Of a stretch of 63,616 nt of DNA, positions 3,140 to 63,616 are shown in pieces. The DNA is taken from positions 1 to 63,616 of the forward strand of contig QPGO01000304.1 in NCBI GenBank assembly GCA_008632985.1. The letters run 5' to 3'. The notes below the pieces were generated by a model. The model had not been told where the DNA came from, searched no databases, and saw only the letters and a list, made by a program, of their open reading frames with translations. Source of the DNA: Psammoneis japonica. Lineage: Eukaryota. How positions within the stretch are numbered: the first letter of the stretch is position 1; each line of letters starts with the position of its first letter. The position numbers were made by a program, and so were the translations under genes.

Positions 3140-3218
3140 CTGGTGTTGGTTGTTGGCAGTGTTGAGGAGTTGTGGTTGTGGCTCGTGGCTCGCGTGCACG
3201 GTGCATGCAGTGCAGTGC

Positions 3219-3249
<31 letters not shown>

Positions 3250-6200: not shown

Positions 6201-7310
6201 GGTGCAATGCTCGCTGCACTTTCAACACAGCAAATGAAGCAAAAAGACATTTGGCAAATGGAAAACAGGGCTCTGTTGTTGCGTGTGGCATGGGTTGCTC
6301 TGCCACAAAAGCGGAGCTCTGCTGTGGGGCAAGGAAGATGACAAACAACATTGCCGCAATGAGCTGCCTGTTGTTCTGTTGTCAGACACAGGGAGAGCCA
6401 ACCTTGAGCTCTTTGGACAGACCTGGGCATGTTTGGACAACTGACTTGTCATGCACAATGCTCTGGGTGCACACTCATTGTGTGCCAACTTCTCATCATT
6501 GCGCGCTGATTCTTCACAAACAAAAAGGAAACCAAGCATCACAGCAGACAGCATCAGGACTCAAAGTTGTGGCTGGAAGAGTCAGTGGCCAAATGGAAGT
6601 CACTCTTGCTGTGCCAAACTTAAATGACCTGGAGTTGAAGATGAAAGAACCTCCCTCCCAGAGACTGCAAGGCTTTTGCCTGCAAGCTCTGTTCTTTGCA
6701 TTGACCACCAACTCAGCTCCTGACAGGCTGAAAGCAAATGGAGATTTTCCAATGAGGCAGGGACCCATGCACAGCTTTTGCTGCGAATGTTGCGCCCTTG
6801 TTCACACAGAAATGATTGAAACCTTGGGAAGCTGTGCAACAAAATCTTTGCAGACCATTGCTGTCAAAAAAGATGACTTTGAGAGAGATCAGAAAATCTT
6901 TGTGCCATCATCATCCACACCCCAACCTGCCAACAGCTGGAGAGAAGGTTGTTTTTGGCAGAGTCAAGAAACAGAACAGATCCAGCCAAGAAGCTGGGGG
7001 GGATGCAATTGTGACATGCATCTGTCTTGTTCATGTGCTGTGTTGTGCATGGAGCACCACTCAAGGGAACAGCTCTTTTTGTTGAAGATGTGGCAGCCTG
7101 TGTTGGCCTGCTGTGCCAGAAGTCTGCAGTGTGTCCGCAGTGCGTGAGTGGCAGCGAACTGTGGGGGGATGACTCTTTTGCCAATGTGGAAGATGCGCTG
7201 TCAATCTTCAATTCCCTGGGGCACATTTGGGAGAGACCCTGGTGGATGACACCCAAGACTGGCTCTTGCCACACTGCCAACCAAATTTGCATGACCAAAT
7301 GGACATTTGA
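3140..7310. mobile_element. Eroded repeat/TE-like island 1 (TpA- and CpG-depleted, TG/CA-rich); family not identifiable
   Basis: Only a handful of TA dinucleotides in about 4 kb. ORFs are Cys/His/Gln-rich and nearly Tyr-free. Sharp return to normal composition near 7310. Confidence 0.6.
3219..3248 (+). repeat. (GGCA)n microsatellite
   Basis: ggcaggcaggcaggcaggcaggcaggcagg. Confidence 0.9.
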
Positions 7311-11269: not shown

Positions 11270-13245
11270 GGTGGTGGCAAGAGGTGCAGCAAACAATCTC
11301 TTGAGTGACCACACCATGCTTTCACTGACCACCCTGTGGGCAAGTGGTTCAAAGATTTTCCCTGTGTGTGAGTGTGGGTGGGTGATGGCCATCAATGACT
11401 TCACACACACACACACACGTGTCGAAAAATGTGCCCAGAGGGGCGACACACCCGCCCATGTGGTGTGCAGTGGGACATCGCTTGGTTGATCATGTGGGAA
11501 TGGAAAAGCCAATTGATTTGATGCACAGACACACAAGAGTGAACCACAATGCCATCCTTCACACACACGAGCACCACACACAGCAGCAGTGCCAAAATCA
11601 TCGTGGTTGTTCACCCAGCCACGCTGCACATTCTCTCTCTTTCTCCTCTGCTTTTTCTTGATTTTCAGAGCCCTGCACATGTGCTTCTGTGTGCCTTGAC
11701 ATCAGCAGCACATTTGCCTTCTTTCTGCACCTGCATCCCCACTGCCAGGCTTGCTTTTTAAGAAACCCGCATTTCATGTGTTTGAAGCAAGTCATGGGTG
11801 CAGCAGAGAGAAGAGAGTTTTGTGAAAAGCACGTTGTTGTTTTTTCCCACAACAATCACTGCACATTCTTTTGTGCACAATTGTGACTCACCCAATGCGT
11901 TGCATCCATCGCTTGCTGACTTTTGAAAGCACAGTGCTTGCCCACACCACATGAGAGTTCACACCCCGATCAGTTGTCTTTGCACACAAAAGAGCTGCTG
12001 CACTGCCCTTTTCTTGCTGAAAGAAAGAACAACAAAACAACAGCATTGCTTGGGTGGAGCTCAGCTTTCTGGCACAAGCAAGGCAAAAAAGGCAATGCTT
12101 GGGCACATCTCAGCAAAGTTTTTTCAAAACAACTGATCGCCGCCACTTGGAGAGCATGTTTTCTGCTCAGCACAGTGGGAGCCAAGAAGCAAAGACAAGC
12201 AAAGTTGTGCATGTTGTGCCACTCCTCCATGCAAGGACCACATGCTGCTGTGACCATGACACAAAATCTGACTTTCTCTTTCACCTGACAAGATGTCAGT
12301 TCCTGGGGCACTTGTTCAAAGGGCAAAAAGAGCACTTCTTGATCTGCAGTCCCCTCACTCTACACCGACACATGAAGCATGCAATCTGGTGGATGGCTGC
12401 TGCAGAACTCATGAACAGTGCTGCAAGATGCTGCAGGGTGTGCTTGCTGTTGCAATGTTGTTGCACTTGTCAAGAACACACTGCACACACCAGCACATTG
12501 GTCAACACTCATGTCTCCTTTTTCCCATTGCAGCTTGTCTGCTGACTTTGCTTTCACCCTCATCCTCCCCAACACAGTGTTGCACCCTTTGCCTTGGTTT
12601 GTCAACTGCACAACTTGAAATGATGCAGCAGTTTTGGTGTTTTGGTCTGTGTTGAAGCAGCATGCCAACACTCAAGCAACAAGGCAGACGAAGGCAGCGT
12701 CGGCTCACACAGCACACAGCAAGCCCTGTCTCCCGCAACTTGTGGTGCTTTACAGAAAACAAGGTGTGTGCCAGGCAGGTTGGTGCTTCAACAACATTTT
12801 GACTTTCTTGTTCGCATGTTTTCAGGATCTGCTGCTGTCTGGGCCAACTCTTTCACTCTGTCGATGTCAAGTGCCACGTGCAGAGAACACACAAATTGTT
12901 GTGGAAGAAGGGCAGAAAGAACAAGAGTGGAGTGAACACACCACTGGCATTGTGGAATGGTTTTGTTGTTCATGCATCAGAAATGAGCAACAATGGCATC
13001 TTTCCATTGTGGCAAACTGAGAAAAACACTCTGTGGCACCCAGAGCAAACTCGCAGAACTTGGCTGTTCTTGTCTCGCAGCTTTGCAGCTGTCCCTCTGT
13101 AAAACAGAGAGGTGCTTCTTGTTCTTGTGCAGCCATCTTGTTGTCGCATGATCACCAGCCACCATGTCGAATTCACCAGAGGATTCATCCACAAAACGCC
13201 CAGCTGCCCATCATGTGGAATGAAATTAAAAATGAGCGTTGGTTT
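11270..13245. mobile_element. Eroded repeat/TE-like island 2 (TpA/CpG-depleted)
   Basis: TA nearly absent, CG strongly reduced, (CA)n tracts, no recognisable intact ORF. Confidence 0.55.
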
Positions 13246-27444: not shown

Positions 27445-30400
27445 ATGCCAGCAGTCCTGGAACTCTCTCTGCCCTTCCTTGCATGGACTGGGATGGGGAG
27501 ATTGTGGTGGATGATGGTGGAAATGATTTTCCACCTCGAAACTAGCCACAATCATGGCAACAGCAGAAGTGGGAGCTGCAGCAGTGCAAGAAATCACGGC
27601 TGCTTCTTTGTCATCAATTCCTGTTCCTCATTCTTCCTCATCTCTCCTGGCATTCCTTGAGTCCCCATTCCACCTCATTGCTTGTCGTCATTGCGGTGTG
27701 ACCAGATGTTGTCACCAAACAAACAGCTCGCAGCGTCACTTCAGAGGAGTTGCTTCACATTGTCACAAACATGAAGCTGCTTGATTTTGTTGAGATGACC
27801 CTGGAGAACTCTTGATGCTTGTCCAAATGAACAAACAGATGCTTGAGAATGCAAGCACCAGCTGATTGCCTTTCATCTGACCTGAGACACAGTGTCTGTG
27901 GACAAACCTCGATGCAGCAGGTTCTGAGCTCATTCTCATGCTTCCCAACATGTTTGCCCCACAATTGTGAGAATGCAAGTTGGTTTGTTGTCAGACTTCT
28001 GGCAAAAGTTTGAAAACAAGGGGGTGAAGTTCCATCATTTCAGCGCATGCAAGATTTTGTCAGATCATGCCAGAAGAACACCCAACTTGTCTCACAATGT
28101 CAAGGGCTGCCCAGCTGAATCACCAATCAAAAGTGCATGATCCTGCTGTGAGCAATGTCATGTGTGGAATGAAGCACCTCTGTGTCAACTTTGACAACAG
28201 CACAGCAGACACCAAGCATTTGAAGACCAGCCAAGAAACCTTCAAGGCTTGCCATGGCTGTGGTCAACATCAGGTGCAGCAATCCATGCAGGAGCACACA
28301 GAACTGTGCAGCAAGACCTGATGAAGAAGAACAAGGCATGTCAGAGAATGGCTTCAAAATGTTTGTGATTGCACTCTGCTTTCTCATCACTTGCCCCCCA
28401 GAGAGTGCCAAGATTGCTTCCAAGGGCTTTGGAGTTTGTGGGCAATGCTGCCCCCCCCCCCCCCAGGGAGAGAGCATGTGTGGAAATGAACTGACCAATT
28501 CACAGCACATTGAAGCTCAAAAATTTGTTTGGCTTTCATCAATGTTGACCACCCTTGTGGAGGATGTGGAGATGCTTGCAATTGTGGAGAATGTGCCCCC
28601 CACTTTTGGATTGAAAAAAAAAAAAGCATCTGCTGCTCAACAGAGACAGAAGGCACTGGTGTCTCTCACAATTTGGTGGTCCTGCTCTCAAGCATGAGAC
28701 TGGAATCCACACTTGCTCTTCAACTTGTGTGTGGATTGCTGGTCCCTTCAGAGGTAGAAAACATGACATGTGGCACAATTTTTTGCTGGTGAGGAGGATG
28801 AGAGCACAACAGGTGACTTTGCAAAGAGCTCGGTTGGGAACCTTGCCTGGTGCTCTGAGGCAAAATCCCAGATGGATGGCATGCCATTGCTGGAGGGGGT
28901 CATCCAGGCGCAGGAAGATGATTGTGGTGCCAAGCTCCATTTGCCCCCATTCCCAAAGAGCCTCAAGAGCTGCTCCTGAGCCTGCTGTTGATGCGAGCCA
29001 TTCATCAGACATCTCAAAAACTTTGCAGTGTTGTGAGGCAGGCTCTGTCATCAAGTTTGGAAGCATCCTTGGGCATTTGAAGTGTTTTGGGCTGCTGGCC
29101 AGCACCAAATGGAGCATGGTTTGGAGCTCTTTGAAGTTGCATTTTTTCAACTTCTTGCTTGCAGATGGACGCACCACACCCTTTGGCCCTTCCACCACCA
29201 GAATTGAGCAAATCTTCACAGGTGGAGATTTGCTTGCTTGCACCACAAACTTGTCAAATGAAATGTTCTCAGAAATTTGCAACAAACAATTCTCATGCAA
29301 TTTTGTTTTGGAGTGCACATTTGCTGAAACCTCGGGGGGGGGGGGGGGGGGCATTCTTGCAATTTAGGAACTTCAATGTCAACATCCAACACTGGTTTTT
29401 TGCATGCTCAATCTGTGGACAGGAGGAGCCAAATCTCAACCTTCAACAATGAAACTTGTGGTGAGTCACTGCCACAATGGTGCAGTGAATGCCACACCCT
29501 TGGAGCAAATCTCCAATGTTTGGTGTTGGAAGCCTCAAGACAAGAAAAAAATCATTTGAGCTCATGCCAGAGATCATCTCATGGTGGCACTCAAGTGTGA
29601 CATCTGTGTCTTCCACAAGCTGCACCAGTGGGACCTCTGGTGCACATTGCCTTGAGACAAGGTTGTGTCTGCATGCATCCACTGCATTGTGTCAGAGAGA
29701 TGCAATTTTGGGGTCAGGAGTCCACTGCGGTTGAAGCAAATGCCTCAAGGGTGGCAAGAAGGCTGGCATTGTTAGAGTGACTGGGGTTGTCCGGCCCTTG
29801 TCTGGCACCGGGTTCACCACCTGCATGCGGCCATTGCAGGCATGAGGTTGCAATGCAGATTGCATTGGGGTCAATGTTGCCTGGCAAATGCTGTGACCTC
29901 TGATGCTTGTGCTCAGTTTGATGTGGTGCAAAAGCTGTGTGTGTGTCCTGCTCAAATCAAGTTCAAGCCTCAGCTCAGGCCAATGAGCAAGCTCTGGCCC
30001 TGGCTGACTCAGAGAGCAAGCAATGTGTTTGAATCTGTGAAGACCCTTGTGCTTCCACATGGCTTCAATGTTTTTTGACAGGCTGCAAGTGACAAATGAG
30101 ACAGGATTGGTGGCCTGATCAGGCAATTTCCTTTGGCAATTTCTGCAGATGTGTGGTGCAACACCTCCTCCCTCAAGTTGGGGACAAGGCAAGGCAAGGC
30201 AAGGCAAGCAGCATTTGAGGCTGGCCGTTTTGTGACTCTCACACATGGTTTGCATTTGCAGCAAGCTGTTCTCTGTTGCTGCAGGGACCAGAGGGTCTGC
30301 TCATGGATTTGTCAGTGTGTGCCAGTGGACCACCTCCCAAGACATCCTGGTTGTGTGACAGCTCTGTTGTTGGGGAGGGCAAAGGGAGAGCATGGAGAGC

Positions 30401-31340
30401 AGCAGCGCAAGCTTCCAAATTTCAAAGTGACCTCCTTGGGGATCAACATCCAATGCTGGGTGGAGACGATTGCATCCATTCACAGCAATCAAAGCCGCAC
30501 TGGGGGGTGCCACATCCAACCTCCATGGGAAGGTCTTGATGACTCAGGAGCTCAATGTCCTCCTTCATGGGTTCCTTGGTGACATCAGTGATCACCACCT
30601 CACTCAGATGTTCAGGAGAAGTGCAACATGAGTCTTTTTTTGGCAAGGTTCAGATTCTCAAGCCACAGCTCAAAAGGTGTGGGAGGACAACATTGACGTC
30701 CTGAACAGATGAAGAAGAAGAAGAAGAAGGAAAGGTCTGGAGCAGCTGAGTCTGCTCACAAGATGCATCAGCATTGTGTGGATGTTGCTCTTTTGCCACT
30801 TTTGTTCTTCCTGTGCTGCGCCAAGGCTGTGCAATTTGTCGGTTGCAAGTCTTCGTTGGTGTTGGTTGCAGGAAGATCTGGCTCTTCCTTTTGAGGTGGC
30901 CACTGCCGGGGAGTCTCATCAAGGGACATGTGCTCTGCTCACTTCAGTTTTCCTGGGGAGTCACTGATTTGAGGTCAAGGCAGAAGTTGCTGCACTGTAC
31001 CTTTGACAACCCTGCTTTTTGGAACAAGGGGGCAGCAGGGTCTGGTGTGTCTCCCGCAACTTTGAGGTTGCTCTTGTCCTTTGGGTTGAGACACAGCAGA
31101 ATGCTGGAGGTCACAACCTGTGAAGCTGCTCCTCAAAATGCACCCAAGGCAGAGTTGCATTGCTTCTTTCTGCCATGAGCCCCTGTGCTGCCACACAGAA
31201 CCCTGGGGGGGGTTCAGATCACCCATCCCCCCTTGGTGCTCAGCAGAGCTTGCACTGAATTCTCTGCTCCGTGAGATTTCTGAGCACTTCAACATCAGCC
31301 AGATTGCTTCTCAGTGGTTCTTGGCCAGGATTGCAGAAGC
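27445..31340. mobile_element. Eroded repeat/TE-like island 3 (TpA/CpG-depleted)
   Basis: By eye, 0 TA and 1 CG in 28021-28620. Poly-C at 28451, poly-G at about 29334, (AAGGC)n at about 30186. Confidence 0.6.
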
Positions 31341-36743: not shown

Positions 36744-38008
36744 ATGCCCTTCGTCGATACAATCGATGACGAAACCACCCTCGTTGACCTCAAGGCTCGA
36801 CTCGAGTCGACTCCGCTTGCTCTCGTGGTGGCTGTGGCATCCTTTGGTGGGCCCAAATGCAAGTCTCTCCTTGACGATTTGCCCTTGCTCGAAAAAGACT
36901 ATGACAATGGTTCTACTTGCTGTGGTCCTGCCCCGATCAAACCCCAAGTTTTGATTTTGCATACCGACGCTTGTGACGAATTGGAAGACATGGCAATCGA
37001 ATTGGGCTTGAACGAAATACCGTCGTTTCAATTTACGCGAATGGCAAATTGGTAGCATCAAACATGGAGGGAGAGGCTGTGTCTGTTGCAAGCATTCGCA
37101 CTAGTCTTCAAGAGATTGCCGCTACAGGAACTCTCCGTAGTAGTAACGGAGGGGGCTGCTGTAGTCCCCCTACCAACAACAAAACCAACAAACCAGCCGT
37201 GTGCTGTCCGGATGATTCATCGGATCCCAATTCCGCTCCCACTGACCCCTCAGACGTGCTACGAATGGTGCAACAATCGTATGCCGCTACAGTCAACCGC
37301 AACAACGACAAGGACGGCGGCGGCGGTGGATGCTGTGTCAGTGTCGATCCAGCCTTAATGGGCTACACGCCGGAACAAATCACCAAGGCGGGCGCGGAAT
37401 CCAATTTGGGATTGGGTTGTGGAAATCCCATGAGCTTTGCCAACCTAGTTGAGAATGAGACTGTTCTCGATTTAGGAAGTGGTGCTGGAGTTGATTGCTT
37501 TTTGGCTGCCGACCTTGTGGGACCTTCCGGCACTGTGATTGGAGTCGACATGACGCCCGACATGATTTACAAGGCGAGGACCAATGCGGTGAATAAAAAG
37601 ACAGCCAATGTAGAATTCCGTTTGGGAGAGATTGAGCACCTTCCCGTAGCCGATGGTACGGTGGATTGCGTCGTGAGCAATTGCGTGATTAATCTCAGTC
37701 CCAACAAGCCGCAGGTGTTTCGAGAAATACACCGCATTCTCAAACCGGGTGGTCGCATTGCCGTGTCGGATGTGGTGATTCGTCCCGAAAAGATTATACC
37801 CGATCGTCTCAAGACGGCCGAGGCATTGGCTTGCTGAGTTACCGGGGCGCCACAAATGGCGTCCCTTGAAGAGTACTTGGTGGATGCGGGATTTTGTGAC
37901 GTGGAGGTAAAGCTCAAGGAGGAGAGCCGAGAGGTTATCAAGCAGTGGTTACCAGGGAGTGGGGCCGAAGACTATGTGGTTGGTGCCCAGATTACGGCGA
38001 AAAAGTAG
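36744..38008 (+). CDS. arsM: Thioredoxin-fold / arsenite S-adenosylmethyltransferase fusion; probable selenoprotein (TGA 37835-37837)
   Basis: [39 protein letters not shown]. ArsM homology continues in frame after the TGA (AC*VTGA...L.DAGF...[18 protein letters not shown]) to TAG at 38006. The N-terminal Trx-like part joins through a 1-bp shift at about 37031. Confidence 0.82.
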
Positions 38009-38079
38009 AACAATGAACTCGATGTGAGACTGCATGCAGAGAGCGATGCACGCATTGAGTCTGCGCTTCTAGAATGCGT

Positions 38080-38170
38080 TGCGGTTGGCGTGAATGAATG
38101 ACGATGCATCTACAGCTGCGCATGTGATATGACATTGCAGTGGAGGATGCGCCTGAAGAACGATTTCAAG
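38080..38170 (+). promoter_or_regulatory. Candidate SECIS element in the 3' UTR
   Basis: ATGAC (38098) GATGCATCT pairs with GGATGCGCC TGAA (38154), giving a quartet plus helix II. The canonical apical AA is not evident. Confidence 0.4.
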
Positions 38171-38384
38171 TGGACATCTAGTAGATTTCACGTGGGTCAA
38201 TTCATGTCGACAAGAGTGCTGCGCAACAACATGTGCTTCAACTCAGTCATGCTCTTATAAGCAACATTTAATGTGAACACTGCATGCATCTAGGTTAAAT
38301 GTGCTCAGATTACTTTTCGAGAAGAGCCACAGCATCCCTTGTCTATCCGTGTTGTCCGTCATGGTTTGTAGCCAGTGCATTTAT

Positions 38385-40434
38385 TCGATCTCTGCACAGT
38401 TGCTCCAATCACAAGCATTCAACCTCTGAATTAGCACAGCTGGTGCATTGTCTTTCCATCAGACTGCAAGACTTTCTGTCAAACTCTGTTTCCTGTGTTT
38501 TATTTGCCTTTTGGTTGTTCCTTCACAACACAAGAAATTCATTGCAGACAGGTGTGGTTCCTTGGAAGCAAGTTGCCACTGGCCAGCTTGACAAGTCAGT
38601 CATTTGCACTTTTGTTTTCTTTGAATTTGTGACAAAGTGCTGTCCCAAAATGCCAGCAGCAGATCTTACAATGACAAAAAGCACAGGGAATGATTGAACA
38701 ATCAGCACAAGGTTTTGGTGCAAAAGTGGTGGCGTTTTGATTGAAGGTGGTGGATTGCTTTCCTTGCTTGGAAACCATGGATGATGAGCCAACAGCCTCC
38801 ATTGAGGCAACATGTGGCTGCTGCTGAAAGTGTTGTTGTTGATGGCATCAAGGCACCCATGCAGCAACAAGGGAAGCATGTTCAAAACAAGTGACTCTGT
38901 GATGTTTGATTTGAGTGAGTGTCTCACTTGTGTGCAGGCACACTGCACAGCAGTTGCATCACAACATGCAACAAATTGACAAAAAGAAGCAATGAGCAAG
39001 ATGTGTGAAATCACCTGTGCTCAAGCGATGGTTTGGGTGGACATGATTTGCAAGTTAAACAGCAAAGCTGCAGCCCACAACTCTCCAAAAATTTTGGATT
39101 TGTCTGGTCTGCTGCCTGTGGTGATTTTCTGCTGAGAGCATCCCATGCTGCATGCAGGGCTGCACACTCTCACAGGCAGCCTGTGTTGCTTGACAGATGA
39201 TGTCCAGGTGCAGCTGAATGGGGTGCAGGAAATGACTCAGCAGTGTGGTGGGTGGCACATGATTTCTGGTGCTGCTGTTTTAGAAAGCAGCACAAGCATC
39301 CCGGTTTTCTGCTGATGGCTGTGCTTGGGTTCACACAAGTTGTTGTTGTTCTGGAATCAGAGCAAGCACTCCCAGCACAACATTTGCAAGCTTTGTGCAA
39401 CAGATTGCCACCCAGTCTTCAAAAGAAGCAAATGACTGTTTGTCAACCCAGGCTCTGGCAACAAGAGGAGGAGGTTTCAGTGTGCACAAACAGAACGGCA
39501 CCTGGCTTGCACAAATGTTGTTGTGCTTCCTGCAAGCAAGGTGATGAGTGAGGTCATTCTTGTTGGCTCCAGTCACAAGAAGAGTTGTGAAAATGGAAGC
39601 AACCATCTGATGTCTGGCTGGAGACACCCAAAGCCTTGCTTGCATGTGAACCACAATTGCTTTCTTGTCATGCTGTGCCAAGACCTCCTCCAAAAGACAA
39701 TCTGTGCCCCAAGAAAATGCTGCATGGAAGGACGCCCCAGCCTTGTTGTTCATCACATGTCATGGAGAAATTGCCTGTTCAAGAACATGTGGATGAACAT
39801 TTTGTCTCTGGCAAAAAGAGCAAGCACCAGCAAAGAGCATCAAGTCCATTGGGAGATTCTTCAGATGGCAGCAAAAAAATTGTCAAACCTGTGTGCCCAC
39901 AACAAAGATGTGGAGTGTGCAAAAATGTCTGTTTCTGGAAAATCATGTGAGGGCTCATGGCAGTTTGTAAAACAAGGCTCAAGAAAGTGGCAACATTGCC
40001 AAGGTCAGCAAATGGACAAACACAACAAAGAATGTGGCATTTGTCATGGTCTTCATGTTTGTCAGCTTGTGACTGTGCTGCAAACCTGGTGTGATGCCAT
40101 CACCCAGCAGCCACTTGTTTGTGTGGCATGTCAGGGGGGGGAAAAGAAAGCAAGAACATCAACCGTGATTTGTGCCACATCTGGAGCAGTTGTGTCAATG
40201 AAAAGAGCTGCCAAGCTTGCAACAAGCTCCCCAATGTTTTGCCACCATTCAGGGCAAAAGAAGCACTCTCAAGAGAAGCAACTTCTTTGTGCTTTCGGGG
40301 AAGAGCACAGGTGTGGTGCACAACAACCTTTTTGTTGCAGGCACAAAGAGTTTGGAGAGGAGAGTTCTTGCAGGGATGGCCCAGCCACCCCAAGTCATCA
40401 AGAATGTTGCACCATCCATTGCTGGCATCTTTGT
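38385..40434. mobile_element. Eroded island 4, left part (host of the copia insertion)
   Basis: TpA/CpG-depleted. Continues at 46805 on the other side of the TSD. Confidence 0.6.
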
Positions 40435-40710
40435 TGACAGAAACTGAAGGCAAATGGCAAGAATTCAAACAACAACTCCTTGCTGCTGTCTAAACAGCAG
40501 ATGAGTCTCAGCTCAGAGACCGTCACAGGAGCCGAAAGACGTGCAAGTCGGTACAACTGGGCCACTGTTGTCATTCTTGTGAGCCTTGTGGCTCGAAAGC
40601 AAACTGCATCGCGCGTGAACGCGCGGAACTAAAGCACACAAAACTGTGCGCGGCAAACTAAACAGCGCGCGACACTTCGCGCGCATCCAAATCCTGTTCA
40701 AATCCTGTCA
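40435..40710 (-). repeat. 3' LTR (276 bp)
   Basis: Begins TGACAG and ends CTGTCA. Preceded on the minus strand by the PPT-like AACTGGGGAG (40711-40720). Confidence 0.95.
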
Positions 40711-40719
40711 CTCCCCAGT

Positions 40720-43700
40720 TTGCTTGAGGAGCCACAGAAACAGATTCGACTTCGGATGGAATGAAGTTCCAGAACATGAGGGGGCAGAGAAGGTCCCAGA
40801 TTTGGGAGCAACCCCAATGCTTGCTGAGAATGTCAGCAGGGTTGCGGGAGCCTTCGATGAAGTGGAACTCAAGGCAACCAGAGGCAATTGCCTCACGCAC
40901 ACGGTGGAACGACAGTGCGGTGTGTCGCTTGTGTAACTTGGAGTGCGGGATGGTGGCACTGTCTACAACCGACTTGTTGTCACCGAACATGCAACTAACA
41001 TTACGGATCGGGACGCCAAGGCAGCGCAGGGTGATGCGCAGGTCGACAATCTGCTCAACACAATTCCTTGCGGCAACAAATTCAGATCCGTAGGTTGCAG
41101 TCTCCACGGTGGCTTGTTTCTTGGAGAACCAATCAGCCGGGAATTTGTTGAGGAAGTGGAGCATTCCCATGACAGAGCATCCGGTGAGCATGCAATGGTG
41201 CAAGTTTGCATCGACGTAGTGGGTGGCAGTGACGAACTTGCCAAGGGGCGGTGGAGCGTCCTTCGGGATCATCTCTTCTGCTTCACCATGCACGGAATGC
41301 ATCCATTCATAGGCCGGAGCAGGGAGATCCGAATGGTCGGGCTCTTCCGTGCGAACGCGGAGAGCACCGTGTCGCATCTTGGAGAGGTGCCCACAGACGC
41401 GTTTGGCACGATCCAAGTGGCCTTGACGGGGCGCAGCTCGGAAGCTAGAGAGTGACATGACAGCCGTGGTAATGTCAATTCGACCAAGGGACACTGCCCA
41501 TTGGAGTGAACCAACAAGAGACTGGAACTTGTGAATGCCATCGGATCCCAGCAGTTCGGAAGTGTCCAGTTCGGGGTGGTCACCCTTCTCTAGAGGTGAC
41601 AGGGCGTTGGTGGCAGGTTTCTCCCCAAACAGTCGGGCGTAGCTGTCAACCATGCGCTCGATGTACTTGCGCGGAGACAGGCACAAGGTTCCGTCGGGGT
41701 CCCGGGAAAAGTCGCAACCCAGATGGAACTCAATGGGTCCCGTGCCCTTGAGCTTGAACTTGCACTTTTCCGTGAGAGTGTCGACAAAAGATTGAGGGTC
41801 CTTCATGGCAATGGCGAGGTCATCCACATAAACGGCAATGTGTTCATAGTGGTCGCCGTTCCTGCGCATCCAAATGTCGGGTTCAGCGCAGCAGGGGAAG
41901 AAGCCTTCAGCTCGCAGGCAGTCGGCGAAGCGCTCGTGCCAGCGGAGACCGGAGCTGCGCAGTCCATGCAGTGCCTTGTGGATGACAAGGATGTGTCCTT
42001 CGAGTTTGCCAAATTCGGGTCCAGCCACAATGTAAAGCTTCTCCTTGGTGGTGGCTTCAAGGCAGGCATTGCCAATGTCGGTGGCCCATGTCTCCAGCTC
42101 GTTGAGTTCGGCCAGGAAAATCATCAGCCGAAGGCCACGGAGGGAGACTGCTCCGGAGCAGACACTGTCGACAGGTACGTCCGTGAGGTGCCCGTCGGCT
42201 ACGAGTCGTGCCTTGTGGCGACCGTCGTGTTTCACGTCGCACACCAGGTGCACTCGGATCTTCTTGTGTCCCGCAGGAGGAGTGGAAGACTTGAAGGGCC
42301 CGCAGTCATGGAAGACTTCGTATTCGTTGAGTTGGTCCATCTCGAGATTAGTTGCGTCTCCCCACTTGCGGTTGCCGTTGCGTTCGTCTAGTGACATGGC
42401 ATGTTTGCAGTTCCGGGGAACTTCGTATCCGCACTTGTGGCGAGGTGCAGTGCGGAAGGAGCGAAGCTTGGCTTGGTTGGCCATGCGAAATAGCTTCTTT
42501 TGGCGCCTCGCGATAGTGCGGAACCGCTTCCAGCCATCCGTGTCGAGGAGTCCGTTCTCTCGTGCATAGATGGCACAGGTGACGGGGTCGTCCTTGGCGA
42601 TGATGGCAAGAGGCTCGGACGTGATCTCCCCACTTTCCCATTCAAGCATGATGTTGTAGCTTGAGCCTTTCCAGGTTGGGTCGTGAGGCTTCAGAGGTCC
42701 TTCGTGTGATGCAATGCGTCGAAATTTCCAAATGGTGGTGTCTTCGTCTTCTTGCTCAATGTGATTCATGATGTCATTGCAGGCAAGGACTTCCTCGTAT
42801 TCGTCATTGTTGACAGAGCAGACGAACTCAGTGAGCTCGGGATTGCCGTTCACTTTCCATTCGTGGTCTTCGACGGCCTTGACGATGCGAGCTCTGTGGC
42901 GTTGTCTGTCCTCTTGTGGCTGCATGAGGAAGGTACGTCCAATGATGTCTTGCGGATCGAAAACTGGCATCTTGGGTGTCCTGATCTCCCCATCAGGAGA
43001 ATCGACGGGGTTGTCGTCATGGCGAGATTTGATGATGGGTTCAGGTGGCTCCCCATCAGGAGGATCAAGACGCAGGTTTCGAACGGCAGGTTCGGGGGTG
43101 GCGGAGCGAACGTTGGACCGGCAGAGGATCTTCTGAGTCTCGTCAGATAGGATCTTGAAGGTCATCTGGTGGCCGACGTGCTCAGCAATGCCAACAAAGC
43201 GTCCACGCAACTCACGGGATTCGGACGGCCAATCGGAGTCATCGAGGTGGAAGCACACTGGTTCCCACCAGTGAAAGCGAAGCAATGGGCTGATGTCCGG
43301 GGTGGATCCAGTGAGAGTCTCGAGGGGCGTGCGCCAGTGGAGACGTGGGGACGCTGTGTGGTTGAGTGTGAAGCACACGCACATGAGCGCCAGCAGCCAT
43401 GTGTGGGCGGGCGAACCAAAACGGTCCATGACAGTGTTCGCCATGCGCTTCACGGTCTGGCATCGACGTTCGGCAAAGTTTTGGTGTTGCTGGTGAGGCT
43501 CACTTTGCCAGCTGGAGATGAAGAGGGCGCGCAGGATCCCGAGCACTTTGTTGCTGATCTCAACTTGAGCACGGTCGCTAATGAGTTTGGATGGGGCACC
43601 ACGTTCACGGATCTGATCCTCGAGTGTGTTGACAAACTCTTTGTCCGTCTTAGTGCCGCAGACGTCAGTGACGGTAGACTCGGTGCCAACAAACAGTTGG

Positions 43701-46139
43701 GCGCTGGTGCAACCAGAGTCGACGGCCGGGGTGTCGGCACAAACGGTGTCAGTGGCGAGAGGCTCGTTGCGGAGGTGGAACGTCATCGCCCTTGGGGTCA
43801 ATCGCACGCAGATGACACTCGTAGAACACGTCGTCGTTCGGAATGAGGTGATCATCGAGGGCGGACGCGTGATCGGCAGACAAGGAAGCGGACAAGATGG
43901 TCTCGTTGACAACGACACGGTGACGGTAGTTGCCGCATTCGTCAAATGGGTTGGCAGTGGGATCGTCCTGCAGGTCAGAGATCGCGTCGCACCACTGGTC
44001 GTCGTCAGTGACAGAGTGATCGAGGACGGAAGGGTCCCATGTGTCATCACCGGCAAGGATGACATGGGGCAGGGTGTCCCATTCGGCATCAGTGCAAGGT
44101 CGCATGGCAACACAAGGCAGGCCAGCCTTGATGTCAATGGGGATGACATGCCATCAGGAGTGGCAATGCGTTGCAAGCCGTTGGGCACCTTGACAGAGCG
44201 ATCGTTGACATCCTGTTTGTGCCATTCGAGCTGGCCGCAGGAATGGATGGTCTTGCCCTTTCCCGTGCATGCGCACTGATGGAGGATGGCGATGACGGGA
44301 CCACGCTGGGTCTCAATGACGGCACCAGCGGTGACAATGGGGATGTCCACCAATTGATGATCGTCAATGCCCTGAACGTCGACTTGGCGAGAGGTGCGTG
44401 CAATGACGCGAACGTCGTCGCCAGCAATGCCGCCGTTGGCCCCACGATCGACTAGAGTGCCAGTGCATGTGGAGCGATGAGCAGAGGCAGAGTAAATGAC
44501 ATTGTGGTTGTTGACGCGGCGGCAAGTGCGGCCGTTAAGTTCTGTGTCATCTGCAGAAGCTGGCGGGGTAGAGGAAGCGGCGGATGGCCCCGGTCGACTG
44601 GCATTGGGGGCTTGGTTAGGAGACAACAGACGTTGCAGATCACCGGGTGGCAGTGGCTTGCGCTTGGTGAGGTGCGCCAGGATGGGATCATCCAAAGTGG
44701 CGTCCACATGTGTGGCGGGGTCACCACAGTCAGCAGGAGTCGTGTTGGACAAGTTGACATCACCGTCACTCCCAAGGTGTTGGTCGTGAAGGTTGGCCGT
44801 AACAGACTCATGCAGTTGCTGGCTCGCGGGTTGCGGGGAGGCGGACGAGAATGCTCAAGGATGATCGCCTTGGAGGAATCGGGCAACGAATCCCAGAGCC
44901 GTTGGTGGTCGGGAGGGAGACGTCTCCATTGGACACCGGTGAGGCTGGGACCGCGGGTGCAGGCAGCATTGGCTTGAAGGACGTCAACGTCGCTGTCAAT
45001 GTCGTAGAACACATCGTCGGACGGTTCCTCGGAGCAGACGTCGTGTGCGTGCATGGCGCGTTGGGGAGCTCTGGGTGTCGTCTTGGGTTGAAACGTGCTG
45101 TCGTGCTGAGCTGCCGCGGAGAGGAGCAAGCCACAGCATTGATCGTATGTGAGGCTCTTGCCACTCTGCGTACGATGCTGATCAGCTTGGTTCTTGACAG
45201 CACGGAGTTCCTCGACAGGGTGCACGGCATTCTCGAGCATGACGCGCTTCTGTCCTTCAGAGAAGTGGTCACTGGCAGGGATGAGTGCCTCGTACTTGCA
45301 CAACTGATCTTGCCAATGAAGGATGAACCCGTGGGTCGGACCTTTCCAAGTGCCATCACCAAGACGTGCGGTGGTGAGGTGCGTGAGCAGGGTGGAGGAC
45401 TCGATGGATGCACGGGTGGAGGCAAGCGCGCACTCAGACAAGGAGCGGCAGACGGTCTGTGCNNNNNNNNNNNNNNNNNNNNNNNNNNNNNNNNNNNNNN
45501 NNNNNNNNNNNNNNNNNNNNNNNNNNNNNNNNNNNNNNNNNNNNNNNNNNNNNNNNNNNNNNNNNNNNNNNNNNNNNNNNNNNNNNNNNNNNNNNNNNNN
45601 NNNNNNNNNNNNNNNNNNNNNNNNNNNNNNNNNNNNNNNNNNNNNNNNNNNNNNNNNNNNNNNNNNNNNNNNNNNNNNNNNNNNNNNNNNNNNNNNNNNN
45701 NNNNNNNNNNNNNNNNNNNNNNNNNNNNNNNNNNNNNNNNNNNNNNNNNNNNNNNNNNNNNNNNNNNNNNNNNNNNNNNNTGAGCTGCCGATGGACACAG
45801 AGACATGCAGTCCGGGCTGAGGCGGCAGGCAAGGAACTCGTCATGCGCGAACAAAGAGGAGTCGTTGGCAACGTCAAGACCTTTGTGTGCTTTGACAATG
45901 CACAGACTGACCAGTGCTGCTAACATGTTCTTATAACCACGGGGCAAAGGGATTGCATCAGTGCCATTGTCGCACTCAAGCGAGTCGATTTGGGACGGCA
46001 TGAACGTGAACAGTTCCTGATGCGAGTCCGTGCCGTCTTGGGCCAAAGCCAAACGAAGAGGACTCCCAGCACCTTGGGCAAGCACGGTTCCAACAACGTG
46101 CTCGAAACCATCGGTTTGTTGCTGACGAGTGAGAACCAT
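40720..46139 (-). pseudogene. gag-pol of the copia element (frameshifts, probable internal deletion near 43790, N gap)
   Basis: Gag MVLTRQQQ..., protease LVDRGANGG, integrase ATDTV...SDRAQ...SEPHQQHQNFAERR, RT KARLVA...YVDD, RNaseH YVDAN...GSEF...DNKSV...NPADILSK. Confidence 0.93.
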
Positions 46140-46587
46140 GGCAGACAAAAGTGGTGTCAGGACAATCAGTTCTGGTTGGGAAGCGAAGGCAGACTCGAAA
46201 CTTGGGTGAGAACAGACTTGACTTGAAATGGACTTGACTTGAAATCTTGAACTGTCTTAAAATCAGAAGTCGCCGGGCTTTGTTGTCCCGTTCGTTGTCA
46301 AGTGCTAAACTTCCTGTCCGGTCCGTAGAGTTGTGCCGGCACGTCCGAACCCGCAGCTGGTGGCGCTTTGGGTTGCTTACGAGCGGAGCAGCGGGTTGTA
46401 AACCCCTGCAGGCAAGCTGACTGGAGGTGGACAAGACCCCCGAACCGTTCTTGTTTTATGTCGGTTGGATTTCCCGATCAGGCTGGCCAGTTGACGAGGC
46501 GTTGGCGCTGTGGACGAACGAACAAACGCGGGAAAGCACCCTCGCCCCAACGCAGGCTGCAATCACGGCTGCTTGCTCTCACAGTNN

Positions 46588-46804
46588 ATAGCAGATGAGT
46601 CTCCGCTCAGAGACCGTTGCAGGAGCCGAAAGACGTGTAAGTCGGTATAATCGGGCTGCTGTTGTTATTCTTGTGAGCCTTGTGGCTCGAAAGCAAACTA
46701 CATCGCGCGTGAACGCGCGGAACTAAAGCACACAAAACTGTGCGCGGTAAACTAAACAGCGCGCGATGCTTCGCGCGCATCCAAATCCTGTTCAAATCCT
46801 GTCA
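46588..46804 (-). repeat. 5' LTR (visible part; inner end and PBS lost at the NN gap)
   Basis: Aligns without gaps to 40494-40710 with 11 differing sites. Confidence 0.93.
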
Positions 46805-49310
46805 TTTGTCATTGTCATGATGCACTCAGCTCTTGATTCCATTCTGGCTGAGGTGTCTGACTCAGCCAAGTGCAGTCAGGAGATGATGAGAAATCAACAA
46901 CAGCATTTTTCATGGAATCTAGAACAATTGTGCATGCATGAGAAGAATTTTCAAGCTTGCGACAGGCAGCTCCTTGATGTTTTGCCATTCAGGAATTGTG
47001 CTGTGCTTTCAGGGAAGAGTGCAGGTGTGGCATGCACAGAGACCTTTTTTTGTTGTGTTTTTTTGTTGACACCACAAAGTGCAAAGAGGAGAGTGCACAC
47101 AGAGACTGCCCACCCCAAGTCACCAAGAATGTCATGCTGTCCAATGATGTGCAAACACAAAAACAACTGGACAAAATGTCTTGCAAGCAGAGAGATGCAA
47201 TGCATGGCATCTAATGCCCCCATCATGCACTTCACAGATGCAGCCCAGCAGAGCTGGTGAGAACTTGTTGCACATGTGCTGTGGTGAGGATGTGAGCACT
47301 CAGTCATGGAATGACCATTTTCTGCAGTGTCAGGACAGTGCATTGTGAAATCAATTTCCCCTGTCTTGAAATTCAAATTTGAAAAATGGCATGCTGACCC
47401 AAGGTGACAGACAAGCTGTTTGGTGCAGAAAGTCCAGGAGTGACACCCAGCTTGTGCACCCCATTGGACAAACCTTGGTGGAGGACCAAAAAGAGTTCAG
47501 CATGCACCCAGCAACTTCAACTTGGATGCACCAGAATGCGTCATTTGCAAGATGTGCAGTGAGACTTGTCATCTTAACAAGGATTCTTGCCTCTGGATGG
47601 TGGAATGTTGGACAACAAACTTGGCACCAAGGGCTTTGGTGCTGGCCAGCACTCTCCACCATCGCAATGGCACAACATTCCAAGTGGCTCTGTTGGGAAG
47701 TGCTTCATCACAACATTGGCAGAGTTGCTGCACACGGGCTCAAGACATGAAAGCAGAGCTTGGAGCAGGTTCACAGTGTGCCAATCAGTGATTTTGCAGC
47801 AGGGTTGCAATGCAGAAGGAGGCAAGGACATCAGGACCTGGGACATGGACAAACACAAAATTCTGGCCCAGTCAATGATCAGCTGCTTGAGTGCAATCTA
47901 AAGTCTGCTCAGAGGGAGGAGATGTGCCAGAGCAGTGTGTCACAAAACATTCATGGAGTGGCATCATGAGAAAAGCCAAAGGGAGCATCATCACAGGCAC
48001 ATTTCTGAGGAGTGGGAAAAAGGTGGAATGCTTGCCTGGATGATGCTGATGAGAAGACCAAAAAGATGCCATGTTTGAGAACTTGGAGTCAACACCTGGG
48101 CCAGAGAGTTCTGGGAGAAGATCATTTTCACACATTCAGCAAGCCACCTGGGATCCAAGCTGTCATCATTGCTTGCTGATGGCGCCATCAAGACTTTCAC
48201 ATGAAGACTGTCTGCAAGAGCACAAGTCTTGGCAGATCTGATGCCAGTGCAGCATCAGATGGCTTCTCCATTGCAAAAAGGCCAGCAGGTTGCTTGGAGA
48301 AGTGTGGAGCATGTTCACAAATTGGCTGGCAAATGAGTCACTCTCTGTGGGATGCCTGCCATGCACACTCATGGCAAAAAGAAGCAGCTGATTGCACCAG
48401 ACAAACATGCCTCTGGATGCCCATCTGGCTGGCACAGGAGAGGTGCAGCAGAGAGCCACAGCCAAAGCAATTCTTTCAGCAGTTGCCAGAGCAAAAGCCA
48501 AGGTGAGAGTGATCCACTGTCTGTTCAGTGGAACGACCCTCTCCACTGACACCCCAACACACCAGGAAAATCAAAAGCATGGCAAAAACAGGATTGAAGA
48601 TCTTCCAGTGCAGAAGAGAAGTGGTGAGAGTCATGACTGCCAGACAAACAGAGAGACAGCAAAATGGAAACAAAAAATCCCTTGCGGCACCCTGTGCTGA
48701 ACAATGGCTGACTCACAAAACCAGTCAAATCAATCATCAACAACACCAACAGACTGGGAGGTTGCTCAGAGTGTGAGCAGGACAGCAAGCTGGGAGGTCT
48801 GCGGGGTGACACTAGAGTGTGCTGTGAGAAGGCCTTCCTGACCTTGCCCAATCCAAGAAGAAATCAGGTGGGCGACAGGAAGAGCCAAGCTGGCATCTGA
48901 CAACAACTCCAAGCTGTGCAGCCGCCCCCACACAACAATGGGGAGCTTGCAACATTGGCAGGGTTCTTGGCAGACTTGGACTTCTCCCACCAGCTCACAA
49001 GCTGAATGATCATTTTCCACATGCACTCACCCCTTGACATGCTGGTGACTCCACAGCAGTGGGAAAATCTGGGTCTCAGAGATTTTTTCTTGACTCTCAT
49101 CTGAGCTGAAGGCCCCGCCCAAGCATGCATGATGGACACTCCTGTTCTGCCAACAACTCTGAGAATGCCCTGGCAGGCCAGTCCCAGAATGCAACCTGCT
49201 GGAAAATGCCAGGACCTGCTTTGGAGACCACAGTTCATTGGCGAGATGGAAGCACGCAACAGATGGTTGGCAGAGAAAGCTGAGTTGTGGACCTCTGTCA
49301 TGTCATCCAA
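46805..49310. mobile_element. Eroded island 4, right part
   Basis: TpA/CpG-depleted up to a sharp boundary near 49310. Confidence 0.6.
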
Positions 49311-49522
49311 GGCAATTCGTACCGTATCGCATCAAGGTGGCACACAGCAAATGAGCGCGACATAATGCGCATCCCTCCCAACGCAATTCTCACAAAAACC
49401 ACCGCACCACAAAAACAAAAATGACGATGGTGAGTTCCTGAACAGCTCCGACACGATTTCCATGCCAGTGCTAGAGGATTGGCACCCTGTGATCGTCTTT
49501 GTTTGATAGGATTCTTCACAAG

Positions 49523-55837: not shown

Positions 55838-56201
55838 GGTTGTGATGTTAGTAACACTCAATCAAGAGAGAAAAAATGATACGACGCAACCGACGGCATT
55901 GTGTCCGTCTGTTTCTTCCGCTTGGCGGCTGACGTACGCGCGCAAAATTTTGAAAGATATTTGAACGTCATGATGATGTCACGATGCGACGACCCACGCA
56001 TTTTTTCGAAAAAGCTTCCCGCGCCACATCCTGCCACCCGCCACCCGCATTCATCACACGATCGACATCGCCCATCACAAAACTCGTGGTTCACGTTACA
56101 GCCGTCACTTCCTCCTTCCGTTTTTCCATTGTCAGTCCCTACATTGTGTCTGCTGATAAATGATCAGACCCTTCGTTACTACGTCAAAAAGAGTAAGACC
56201 A

Positions 56202-60862: not shown

Positions 60863-63616
60863 TGACAGTTTTGGAAGTTTATTGGTTAGGGAAACTACCT
60901 CTACTCTAGAGCTAGAGTAGTACGCGGATTGACTTCGGCGCGCGACACAGGCAATGGTTTTTGTCTGGACCTCAGACCTCGCAACTCACGGTCCGCCCGC
61001 CACCCACGAGCGAACCGCGAGGTCTAGTCACGACTCAACGTCATTCTGGTCGCATCTCACGACTACAACCCAGACTCAGATTTTCTCTTCGAAATAATTA
61101 GCTCATCACAAAATCGATTCAAACAGAAGCAACGACATTCGTCATAATTTCTAGACAACGACTTTCAACAAGCGTCTGTTTACCTCTGTCGCCATTCATA
61201 TTGCTACCAACCTCCGAGGTCTTGTCCATCCTACTCAGCTACAGGACTGCATCTCGACTGGTTGTAGAGACCAATTTGCGCGTTGACGAGAGCTCCTGAC
61301 CGAGTCATCGTCACGGACGCTTTCGGTTTTTGATTTTGAAGCAAACCCGGGAAATAGCTGAGTCTCTCTCGCTTCTCTCGTCTTCACTCTAACAAGAACC
61401 TCCCACACTGCACTCTCTGTCATGGCCACCATCGATCCAGATGTTCTGGCAAGGCGTTTGCCGATGCAATGGCCGCTGACGCCACGGCGACTGCTCCTCC
61501 GGCTCCAACCAAGCCGTTACGTGGTGGAATTCACCCAACCCACGGGGTTTACATTGGTGGTTCCAAACTCAACAACAACTGCGAACAATCCAACGATGGA
61601 ACCTGCCGACTCGCCTCTCAGCGCCATCATCCCAAGGCTCTTGACTCGACAGAACGATCTCTCCGCGATCAACAAGCTTCCGCAATGACTTCCAAGTTCA
61701 ACGGTCGACTTGAGATTTCGGACGGTCCCATCAACGAGCTTGACAAGGACCATTTCGTCAAGACTGTTCGAGATCTGGCAGAAGCCCACGGTCAGCAGAC
61801 GTTCCACCATGTCAAGGACAGCGACGACAAGGTTCAACATGTCTTCGACCATCTTCACGAGTTTACTGTGACCGATCTCGTGAACGAGCACACGGTTAGG
61901 AAAGCAGCTGCCGATGATGCCAAGTGCGACGAGATCGAGCTCGACGATGTCGGGCTCTCTCAACTTCTCGTTCACTCAAGAATCACCNNNNNNNNNNNNN
62001 NNNNNNNNNNNNNNNNNNNNNNNNNNNNNNNNNNNNNNNNNNNNNNNNNNNNNNNNNNNNNNNNNNNNNNNNNNNNNNNNNNNNNNNNNNNNNNNNNNNN
62101 NNNNNNNNNNNNNNNNNNNNNNNNNNNNNNNNNNNNNNNNNNNNNNNNNNNNNNNNNNNNNNNNNNNNNNNNNNNNNNNNNNNNNNNNNNNNNNNNNNNN
62201 NNNNNNNNNNNNNNNNNNNNNNNNNNNNNNNNNNNNNNNNNNNNNNNNNNNNNNNNNNNNNNNNNNNNNNNNNNNNNNNNNNNNNNNNNNNNNNNNNNNN
62301 NNNNNNNNNNNNNNNNNNNNNNNNNNNNNNNNNNNNNNNNNNNNNNNNNNNNNNNNNNNNNNNNNNNNNNNNNNNNNNNNNNNNNNNNNNNNNNNNNNNN
62401 NNNNNNNNNNNNNNNNNNNNNNNNNNNNNNNNNNNNNNNNNNNNNNNNNNNNNNNNNNNNNNNNNNNNNNNNNNNNNNNNNNNNNNNNNNNNNNNNNNNN
62501 NNNNNNNNNNNNNNNNNNNNNNNNNNNNNNNNNNNNNNNNNNNNNNNNNNNNNNNNNNNNNNNNNNNNNNNNNNNNNNNNNNNNNNNNNNNNNNNNNNNN
62601 NNNNNNNNNNNNNNNNNNNNNNNNNNNNNNNNNNNNNNNNNNNNNNNNNNNNNNNNNNNNNNNNNNNNNNNNNNNNNNNNNNNNNNNNNNNNNNNNNGGA
62701 CAAGAATGGCAAGGAATGGAAGTGNGTGTGCCACGTGCAAGGCGAAGGGTGCCGACAAACCTGGAATCCACCAGAAGCACTCTACCGCGGAACATGCCGA
62801 CGACCGCAGGCAACCTCCCAAGGAGACCCCAGCCGGGAATTTGTCTTCCGTTGCTGATCCGGATAGTGGCGTGCCCATGGGTCCGCCCGCTCAGACTGCC
62901 AAGGCACCAGAGGGAGACGAATCCGACCCCAACGAGTTGGTTTTCACGGGAATGTGGTGCGCGGCTACGGATCCCGTTGCCGACCCGGATTTCTGTTCCG
63001 CCCCTGTTGCCACTGCAATTGTTGTTACTCCGGCTTCTTCGGCCGAGAGGGAGAGCGACACAGTCGTTAGCACTGAGGTGGTTTGCATCGAAACGAGCCC
63101 ACCTGCACTCACCTCAGTCGTGGATCCAGTCGTGTCTCCCATCGTGGTTGAGACTGTCACTCCCGAAGACGCCGATGACTTCTACGAACACTCCGACGCT
63201 TTCTCCACCTTTGAAAACGAACCACCGGCTATTGAGTTGTTTCCGGCCTCGAAGCTGTGCTCCATCAAGCATCCAGATGAGTTCTTTGATGCTCCCGCAC
63301 ATTTGACGGATATGCTGTCAGACGACACCAAGTTAGATCTCATCCTTGAACACGACGTACACTTTGAAGACGCACACTACGACTTGCCTCCGTGTGTTGC
63401 GTATCGTGGCTTCGATTTCTACGATCCAGAGGTCCTGGATGCGGATGGTTGTCACGAGGACGTCGAAGACGAGCCCACTTCGCGTCGCTCACTCTTGGGT
63501 CGAGTCAAGCTGTTCATGTTCTGGCTCGCCGCCATGTTTTGGGAAACGGTGCTACATCTTTGCTTTGCTCCGATCCCATGTGTTCCTCGAGCTCTACGCC
63601 GCCAGCGCAAACTCCT
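60863..63616 (+). mobile_element. 5' part of a second CoDi-like copia element (putative LTR about 60863-61144; gag from 61469; runs off the window)
   Basis: TGAC...GTCA-bounded segment, then a gag-like ORF with the Zn-knuckle-like KEWKWCATC...H..H after the N gap. Same Tyr>His/Cys pattern. Confidence 0.65.

Follow-up and report, generated by a model that had tools for sequence, protein, structure and literature searches.

TpA loss by A:T to G:C change in a dead copia retrotransposon, and TpA- and CpG-poor islands, in a diatom-like genome

Introduction

Why should the Pol protein of a retrotransposon carry cysteine or histidine at position after position where its relatives have tyrosine? This question is raised by a copia element at 40435-46804 in a stretch of 63,616 nucleotides from a diatom-like genome (below "the window", always meaning the whole stretch that was analysed). 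A first, sequence-only reading had answered it with hypermutation of the dinucleotide TpA (TA) to TG or CA on either strand, i.e., A:T to G:C and opposite in direction to the repeat-induced point mutation (RIP) of fungi, and had ascribed this to a repeat-targeted defense of a kind that it did not know to have been described. We have followed up this proposal by comparing the element with homologous proteins, with related loci from metagenomes and with other copies of its family, and by charting TA and CG across the window. As far as sequence comparison can tell, the idea of a DNA-level, TA-specific process opposite in direction to RIP appears right in kind.

Results

A copia element that has lost TA and tyrosine

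The element and its parts are the following:

40435..46804, minus strand: Ty1/copia-type long terminal repeat (LTR) retrotransposon, defective and TA-depleted (65 TA and 438 CG in 6370 bp)
40435..40710, minus strand: 3′ LTR in element orientation (LTR alignments; TGACAG terminus; GGGGAG polypurine tract beside 40711)
46588..46804, minus strand: 5′ LTR, inner part only (alignment with the other LTR)
40748..46139, minus strand: gag-pol coding remnant, with frame changes near 44811, 44149 and 43791-43888 (from the frames of high-scoring segment pairs, HSPs)
40430..40434, no strand: left copy of the target-site duplication TTTGT (partner at 46805-46809)
46805..46809, no strand: right copy of the same duplication (partner at 40430-40434)

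The observed/expected ratio (o/e) of TA is 0.21-0.23 in this element and 0.21 in its pol region at a GC of 0.569, while CG is at a normal o/e of 0.91. In metagenomes, 26 pol loci related to it range in TA o/e from 0.32 to 0.93 and in GC from 0.43 to 0.52, i.e., the element exceeds all 26 in GC. Counted in windows of 600 bp, its interior holds 2-9 TA (14 windows) and host DNA 13-39 with a median of 23 (125 windows), two ranges that do not overlap. The counts given in the sequence-only reading for 43201-43800 (3 TA, more than 40 CG) and 17101-17400 (about 17 TA) came back on recount as 3 TA and 48 CG and as 17 TA.

Poverty in TA could have been inherited or selected in the copia lineage without any hypermutation, e.g., through codons rich in GC or by avoidance of a nuclease site, of TATA or of signals for poly(A), and it fits this explanation that about 70% of the codons in this copy end in C and that its GC lies above that of its relatives. 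The unmutated ancestor may indeed have been somewhat poorer in TA than our reference set. However, none of the 26 related elements falls below a TA o/e of 0.32, and tyrosines that are invariant in 60 of 60 homologs have been replaced in the reverse transcriptase, RNase H and integrase regions alike, so that we regard inheritance or selection as a very improbable source of the pattern.

At the protein level, residues 380-1398 were compared with 120 homologs. Tyrosine makes up 1.28% of this part of Pol as opposed to a median of 3.87% (minimum 3.03%), cysteine 3.04% as opposed to 0.97% (maximum 1.61%), and histidine 4.71% as opposed to 3.50%. Tyrosine is shared by at least 80% of 60 homologs at 31 alignment columns, of which the copy has kept tyrosine in 10 and reads cysteine in 11, histidine in 6, phenylalanine in 2 and something else in 2. 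Relatives might have carried cysteine or histidine at these positions all along, but 20 control homologs showed not a single change of conserved tyrosine to cysteine and 0-2 changes to histidine each. Fifteen individual motifs had been named as examples of such replacements, and 14 of them are borne out by a tyrosine majority of 40/60 to 60/60 among the homologs (46/46 for C194); the remaining one, ANLHH, is ambiguous with tyrosine in 22 of 60 homologs and methionine in 23.

We scored the same replacements in 57 loci, seven of which were dropped for having fewer than 60 tyrosine positions. The copy has cysteine or histidine at 0.49 of the tyrosine positions, as opposed to at most 0.11 in 49 other loci. 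A similar value of 0.45, together with a TA o/e of 0.32, was found in metagenome contig L040 (2759 bp, matching over 280-2759), a relative of the copia Pol at 64% identity from an unrelated data set that appears to be a second natural case of this signature. Four copia relatives from other hosts (L011, L017, L018 and L046) combine a CG o/e of 0.15-0.34 with a TA o/e of 0.46-0.89, which looks like ordinary CpG decay without TA loss and hence the opposite of the copy in the window.

Direction, specificity and strands of the changes

Since the homologs have conserved tyrosine at the affected positions, the direction of change is fixed as TA to TG or CA, just as had been proposed. In a polarised count across 639 conserved columns, 82 mismatches were found, of which 21 are explained by one step from TA to TG or CA, 17 of them as replacements of tyrosine by cysteine or histidine. 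The others comprise four losses of CG, 30 different single steps and 27 cases that need several steps. Only two mismatches are A-to-G changes outside TA, which set against the 21 TA losses also upholds the proposed specificity for this dinucleotide. On the coding strand the products are TG in 14 cases and CA in 7, and both strands must therefore have been affected, with a bias of about 2:1 to the coding strand.

A sense RNA substrate would be expected to give such a bias, and it thus counts in favor of editing of RNA or complementary DNA (cDNA) during retrotransposition, by which copies would arrive already mutated and chromosomal DNA would never be attacked. Variants of this explanation are an ADAT/ADAR-like A-to-I activity on RNA or a deaminase of single-stranded cDNA analogous to APOBEC3. 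We consider it improbable, in part due to the LTRs, which differ within this one insertion, as had been pointed out. The two LTRs align at 93.5% along 215 bp and differ at 14 of these positions, 11 of them at TA-derived sites. Five are sites where the right LTR reads TA and the left LTR CA or TG. Six form three adjacent pairs with CA in the left and TG in the right LTR, and each pair is best read as one ancestral TA that mutated on opposite strands, though the ancestor may also have been CG. Of the last three, which are of other kinds, one is TG against CG. The 3′ LTR is the more mutated one and has only 3 TA left within the 215 aligned bp. Differences concentrated at TA-derived sites, three of them in opposite directions, speak for changes that came after copying or independently of it.

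The copia copy is dead

The borders at 40435 and 46804 given in the earlier reading agree with the termini TGACAG...CTGTCA and the 5-bp TTTGT duplication outside them. The outer part of the 5′ LTR is missing at an NN assembly gap (46586-46587), and contigs of public sequencing runs that extend to 46585 run on into different sequence. The traits of a Ty1/copia element are present: TG..CA at the ends of the LTRs, the duplicated 5-bp target and, by colinearity with homologs, a gag-pol in which integrase comes before reverse transcriptase (RVT_2). Full-length homologs of ca. 1850 amino acids are colinear with 46139 to 40748 (tblastn), and a gap of N at 45463-45780 lies within gag.

The open reading frame (ORF) that had been taken for a copia Pol is one by its RVT_2 match (Pfam, E 2e-24), but not an intact one, as there are at least three frame changes: four HSPs of a homolog with a single ORF occupy three frames (tblastn), and other copies of the family have one additional base at 44148/44149 and at 44811. 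The integrase of the mutated copy gave no Pfam match at E≤0.01. A frame of 1398 codons (40658-44854) nevertheless runs open through these breaks, since neither TAA nor TAG can arise where TA is scarce. Residues ~225-365 of this frame are out-of-frame text, where most of the mismatches that need several steps are located. The copy is therefore dead, and its frame changes also mean that it is not under selection, contrary to what selected TA poverty would require.

TA-bearing and TA-erased copies coexist

We compared the segment 36000-50600 with the contigs that four public sequencing runs had yielded for a single sample. Summed contig depth is 27,000-206,000 along the element and ~60-260 on its flanks, and three small runs cover the element only. 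The copia family is therefore highly repeated, though a summed depth is not a copy number, and the many rounds of copying that this abundance implies would suit RNA or cDNA editing.

Apart from 228 further variant rows, the 27 variant events listed against other copies comprise 6 adjacent pairs of TG and CA, 9 exchanges between TA and TG/CA, 7 between CG and TG/CA, and 5 others. Five of the nine TA events listed have TA on the side of the window, and all seven of the CG events have CG in the other copies and TG or CA in the window copy. Run X1 differs from the window at 226 transition and 37 transversion places (unpolarised and including CpG transitions). One contig end has three TA inside 18 bases where two other variants read TG or CA. 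Copies with and without these TA therefore coexist in the sample, and TA-bearing variants of the same family are difficult to reconcile with a lineage that was poor in TA from the start.

Islands without TA and CG

Pronounced as it is, the TA loss of the copia element is surpassed elsewhere in the window:

3520..7140, no strand: island D1 (5 TA and 29 CG in 3621 bp)
11270..13050, no strand: island D2 (3 TA and 23 CG in 1781 bp)
27730..31270, no strand: island D3 (4 TA and 22 CG in 3541 bp, including a 711-bp stretch without either dinucleotide)
38500..40434, no strand: left half of island D4 (single-copy-like depth; one contig spans it with 0 differences)
46810..49242, no strand: right half of island D4 (single-copy-like depth)

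The copia element is inserted within D4, the two halves of which are one island. Altogether, the islands comprise 13,311 bp or ~21% of the window and contain 22 TA and 92 CG where 523 and 755 would be expected at host density (TA o/e 0.03, CG o/e 0.12, TG/CA o/e 1.83). Pyrimidine-purine steps have kept their share (0.237 as compared to 0.241 in host DNA), as would be expected if TA and CG were converted into TG and CA by transitions only. Stretches without TA and CG reach 711 bp, while the median spacing in the window is 8 bp. Gaps of at least 120 bp number 49 in the window (two are runs of N), as compared to five in 247 kb of related loci, the longest of which is 169 bp.

The islands sit between host genes with borders that are sharp at the kilobase scale. 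Their contig depth resembles that of the flanking genes, with values of 65-87 for six bins and of 264 for another. With the most extreme TA loss in DNA of such single-copy-like depth, the proposed targeting of repeats is not supported, and the completeness of the loss in islands without retroelement features is another point that editing during retrotransposition would not explain.

Searches for the origin of the islands yielded little. Pfam matched just Amelogenin (E 0.55) and Serum_albumin (E 0.16) among 16 island ORFs of at least 144 amino acids at E≤1, which we took as chance, and gave 0 matches at E≤0.01 in 101 ORFs of 70-143 amino acids. Two island ORFs had 0 relatives among viral contigs, six copia proteins had no tblastn match inside the islands, and scanning the window for Rfam families and tRNAs gave no match. 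A similarity of 40140-40418 to 46878-47143 was not counted, since its score of 56 compares with a null maximum of 54. We also dropped the idea of a spread of the island state into the left LTR, along its outer 57 bp, as other copies share that outer sequence; the test moreover lacked its right-LTR counterpart, which is lost in the NN gap.

DNA free of TA can stop only at TGA (stops make up 2.6% of island codons) and therefore carries long meaningless ORFs of up to 343 codons. Two island ORFs have at least 333 codons (0.12 expected) and five at least 250 (1.05 expected), a mild excess that does not speak for genes.

There is next to no chance that the pattern is an artefact of assembly or sequencing. 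The assembly is a draft with N gaps and with 300 bp duplicated on the two sides of one N at 10708. However, independent contigs of the public run show no difference from 37738-40464 and no substitution along 46780-48623, neighboring host genes on the same scaffold are normal, the separate data set behind L040 has the same signature at the protein level, and platform errors specific to TA and CG dinucleotides are, as far as we can judge, not known.

A flanking-base rule for TA loss

We grouped TA by the class of its neighbors (R, purine; Y, pyrimidine) and expressed retention as density relative to a reference. For the copia element and L040 this was a set of 16 related pol loci whose CG is normal, and for the islands it was host DNA:

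copia: YTAR 0.55; RTAR/YTAY 0.27; RTAY 0.11
L040: YTAR 0.80; RTAR/YTAY 0.39; RTAY 0.29
islands: YTAR 0.17; RTAR/YTAY 0.02; RTAY 0.01

TA is most protected where the A on both strands precedes a purine and follows Y-T, and most exposed in the opposite context. The same rule holds in all three data sets. The biggest gain among products is that of TGC/GCA. The natural substrate loop of TadA reads U-A-C-G, which is a lead rather than a test. ADAR, in turn, favors a 3′ G and is to our knowledge known from animals only. A purine after the A marks the most resistant context here, which is a further argument against RNA editing of the ADAR kind.

Host and remaining features of the window

Long ORFs free of introns in the window code for a Rieske/PaO oxygenase, a DEX1-like protein, a histone deacetylase, the ribose-5-phosphate isomerase RpiA and others. 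For a DExH helicase, the best relatives with a name all come from diatoms (50-57% identity), followed by Nannochloropsis (42%) and plants (37-40%), and the host is thus a diatom or close relative. No deaminase domain was found in 16 host ORFs scanned in the window. One further stretch resembles the copia element in composition:

61400..63616, no strand: TA-poor, CG-normal, high-GC stretch (TA o/e 0.26-0.38, GC up to 0.61)

It is interrupted by a gap of N (61988-62697), and it contains long ORFs; four of its ORFs were scanned and have no Pfam match. It may be another TA-edited element.

Three duplications were seen besides. An inverted one (1-863 and 49453-50313, 97.6% identity) extends to the start of the histone deacetylase ORF, and its 19 unpolarised substitutions include 7 between TA and TG/CA and 3 between CG and TG. 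Two 300-bp copies at 10408-11008 (99% identity) flank the single N at 10708 and are most likely an unmerged assembler overlap. Finally, a ribose-5-phosphate isomerase-like inverted pair (54945-55746 and 56200-56992) shares 68% identical bases and 84% of the purine/pyrimidine code and has therefore diverged mostly by transitions.

Discussion

The changes described here run from TA to TG or CA, keep to TA, strike both strands, are local and depend on the flanking bases. What they probably reflect is a locally targeted conversion of TpA to TpG or CpA in silenced or foreign chromosomal DNA that spares neighboring host genes. Such a process would convert A:T to G:C at TpA on either strand of chromosomal DNA. 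The copia element would be a fairly recent dead insertion caught midway, with about half to three quarters of its TA sites lost, and the islands targets of much greater age, with TA loss essentially complete. There, a loss of CpG as a second and slower process, most simply by deamination of methylated cytosine, would be nearly finished as well; with TA and CpG both gone, pyrimidine-purine steps there now read TG or CA. We infer that the islands are such old targets of a fast TA process and a slower CpG decay, and that targeting follows silencing rather than repetition. The chemistry would, by analogy, be deamination of adenine in DNA by an enzyme of the ADAT2/TadA type.

It is a bolder thought, and one we hold to be rather unlikely, that one diatom machinery erases TpA via adenine and CpG via cytosine from silenced DNA. 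The candidates would be an ADAT2-like DNA deaminase that takes both A and C, or an adenine deaminase working together with a RID-like DNMT4, and the machinery would act until kilobase islands hold neither TpA nor CpG.

Several observations weigh against a targeted conversion of chromosomal DNA as the common cause. The evidence comes from one window, metagenome relatives and the contigs (not reads) of one sample that is probably the source of the assembly itself, and contig depth gives no more than a rough idea of copy number. Differences between LTRs could in principle come from reverse transcription. A runs test found no strand-coordinated clusters of TG or CA, with values as in host DNA. Per-context products and the preference for position +1 or -2 are noisy, the reference elements being 60-70% identical. 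It is also an assumption that the islands are former foreign or silenced DNA; a foreign origin is shown for the copia element only. The 117 island ORFs gave 0 Pfam matches at E≤0.1, the ORF at 39436-40434 has 0 homologs, that at 6116-7144 has 0 matches among 1.84 billion representatives at E≤0.001, and neither blastn nor a transition-blind search in purine/pyrimidine code found repeats among the islands.

Editing of RNA or cDNA would also depart from the sole experimental precedent that we know of, in which, according to a preprint, resident chromosomal DNA is mutated (bioRxiv 10.64898/2026.01.13.699255). TpA-directed A:T to G:C hypermutation of resident DNA has thus one earlier report, made in 2026 in a chlorarachniophyte with an enzyme that was proposed only. 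The window carries this signature over to an LTR retrotransposon and a host that is diatom-like, and its presence in a diatom-like stramenopile suggests a process that occurs widely in marine protists rather than an oddity of a single species. Transformation and editing are feasible in diatoms, and knockouts of ADAT2/TadA-like paralogs and of DNMT4 could settle the question, with the YTAR/RTAY rule as a fingerprint for testing candidate enzymes. A natural adenine deaminase that works on double-stranded chromosomal DNA would, if true, be of interest to base editing.

For genome annotation, former mobile DNA beyond the reach of homology search may account for a sizeable share of such genomes, and DNA without TA and CG, which cannot form TAA or TAG, is a trap for gene finders that will report long spurious ORFs. 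Should one machinery indeed remove both dinucleotides, mobile DNA of diatoms would have a major fate that has gone unrecognised, and "erased" DNA, a fifth of this window, would be invisible to homology-based repeat annotation.

Comparison with known systems

With fungal RIP the window shares heavy, dinucleotide-specific transitions in mobile chromosomal DNA on both strands that destroy coding capacity. RIP, however, changes C to T and thereby CpA to TpA, while TpA is what is destroyed here and G+C rises: TpA o/e is down to 0.21 at a GC of 0.569, and tyrosine codons are lost instead of gained. As the islands look single-copy, a dependence on duplication is not apparent here. With falling TpA and a CG o/e of 0.91, the copia copy is explained neither by RIP nor by CpG decay, as had been argued from the beginning.

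Editing by APOBEC3 or ADAR is alike in being deaminase-type hypermutation that becomes fixed in genomic copies of retroelements, and APOBEC3 reportedly edits retroviruses and LTR retrotransposons. In contrast to APOBEC enzymes, which act before integration and cause C-to-T or G-to-A changes, the changes in the window are at TpA, the LTRs differ, and DNA other than retroelements is affected. ADAR acts on double-stranded RNA of animals before integration and favors a 3′ G, whereas sites with a 3′ purine resist in the window; YTAR is the best preserved context, and the LTRs differ at TA-derived sites.

Ordinary CpG decay would account for the islands' change of CG to TG or CA and for that in 7 of the listed 27 variant events among copia copies. 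It cannot remove TpA, however, and the copia element has lost TA and kept CG (o/e 0.91). The islands, at a CG o/e of 0.12, show the matching gain in TG and CA, though methylation itself is not visible in sequence. Diatom transposons are CpG-methylated via DNMT5a, and many diatoms also have a RID-related DNMT4 (PMC9998398). By analogy, this methylation would offer a ready route for the loss of CG from the islands.

The closest counterpart is the TpA-targeted A:T to G:C hypermutation of integrated virophage DNA and DNA of nucleocytoplasmic large DNA viruses (NCLDV) in Bigelowiella natans (Mettrop et al., bioRxiv 10.64898/2026.01.13.699255), with which the claim of an undescribed system falls. 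In two integrated viral regions, 230 of 231 mutations recorded by mutation accumulation were A to G or T to C, all of them at TpA and at ~1000 times the background rate, and the genome contains 124 clusters where TpA is low and CpA+TpG is high and that are enriched in reverse-transcriptase domains. An ADAT2-like protein was put forward as the enzyme (same preprint). The window shares with this system the restriction to TpA, the products TpG and CpA, the involvement of both strands and normal adjoining DNA, as well as low TpA with high CpA+TpG over runs of 1-kb windows and reverse-transcriptase-bearing sequences among those depleted. By the thresholds given in the preprint, 15 of 63 1-kb windows qualify, with runs of at least three at 3001-6999, 28001-30999 and 38001-40999, and in the copia interior six of six windows pass the threshold for TpA and one of six that for CpA+TpG.

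There are also clear differences. B. natans is a chlorarachniophyte, i.e., a rhizarian, whereas the host of the window is diatom-like and thus a stramenopile, and we found no report of a TpA-hypermutation signature in diatoms in the literature; the words CpG and diatom are absent from the main text of the preprint. De novo mutations were followed in B. natans, and sequences were compared for the window. Instead of giant-virus DNA, the targets in the window are a high-copy LTR retrotransposon and islands, and the latter have reached a TA o/e of 0.03, as compared to a TpA o/e of 0.45 in B. natans at its NCLDV region, and have lost CpG as well. This loss of both TA and CG in five single-copy-like intergenic islands is new. 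So is the rule that YTAR is resistant and RTAY most sensitive, which is not stated in the text of the preprint as far as it was available.

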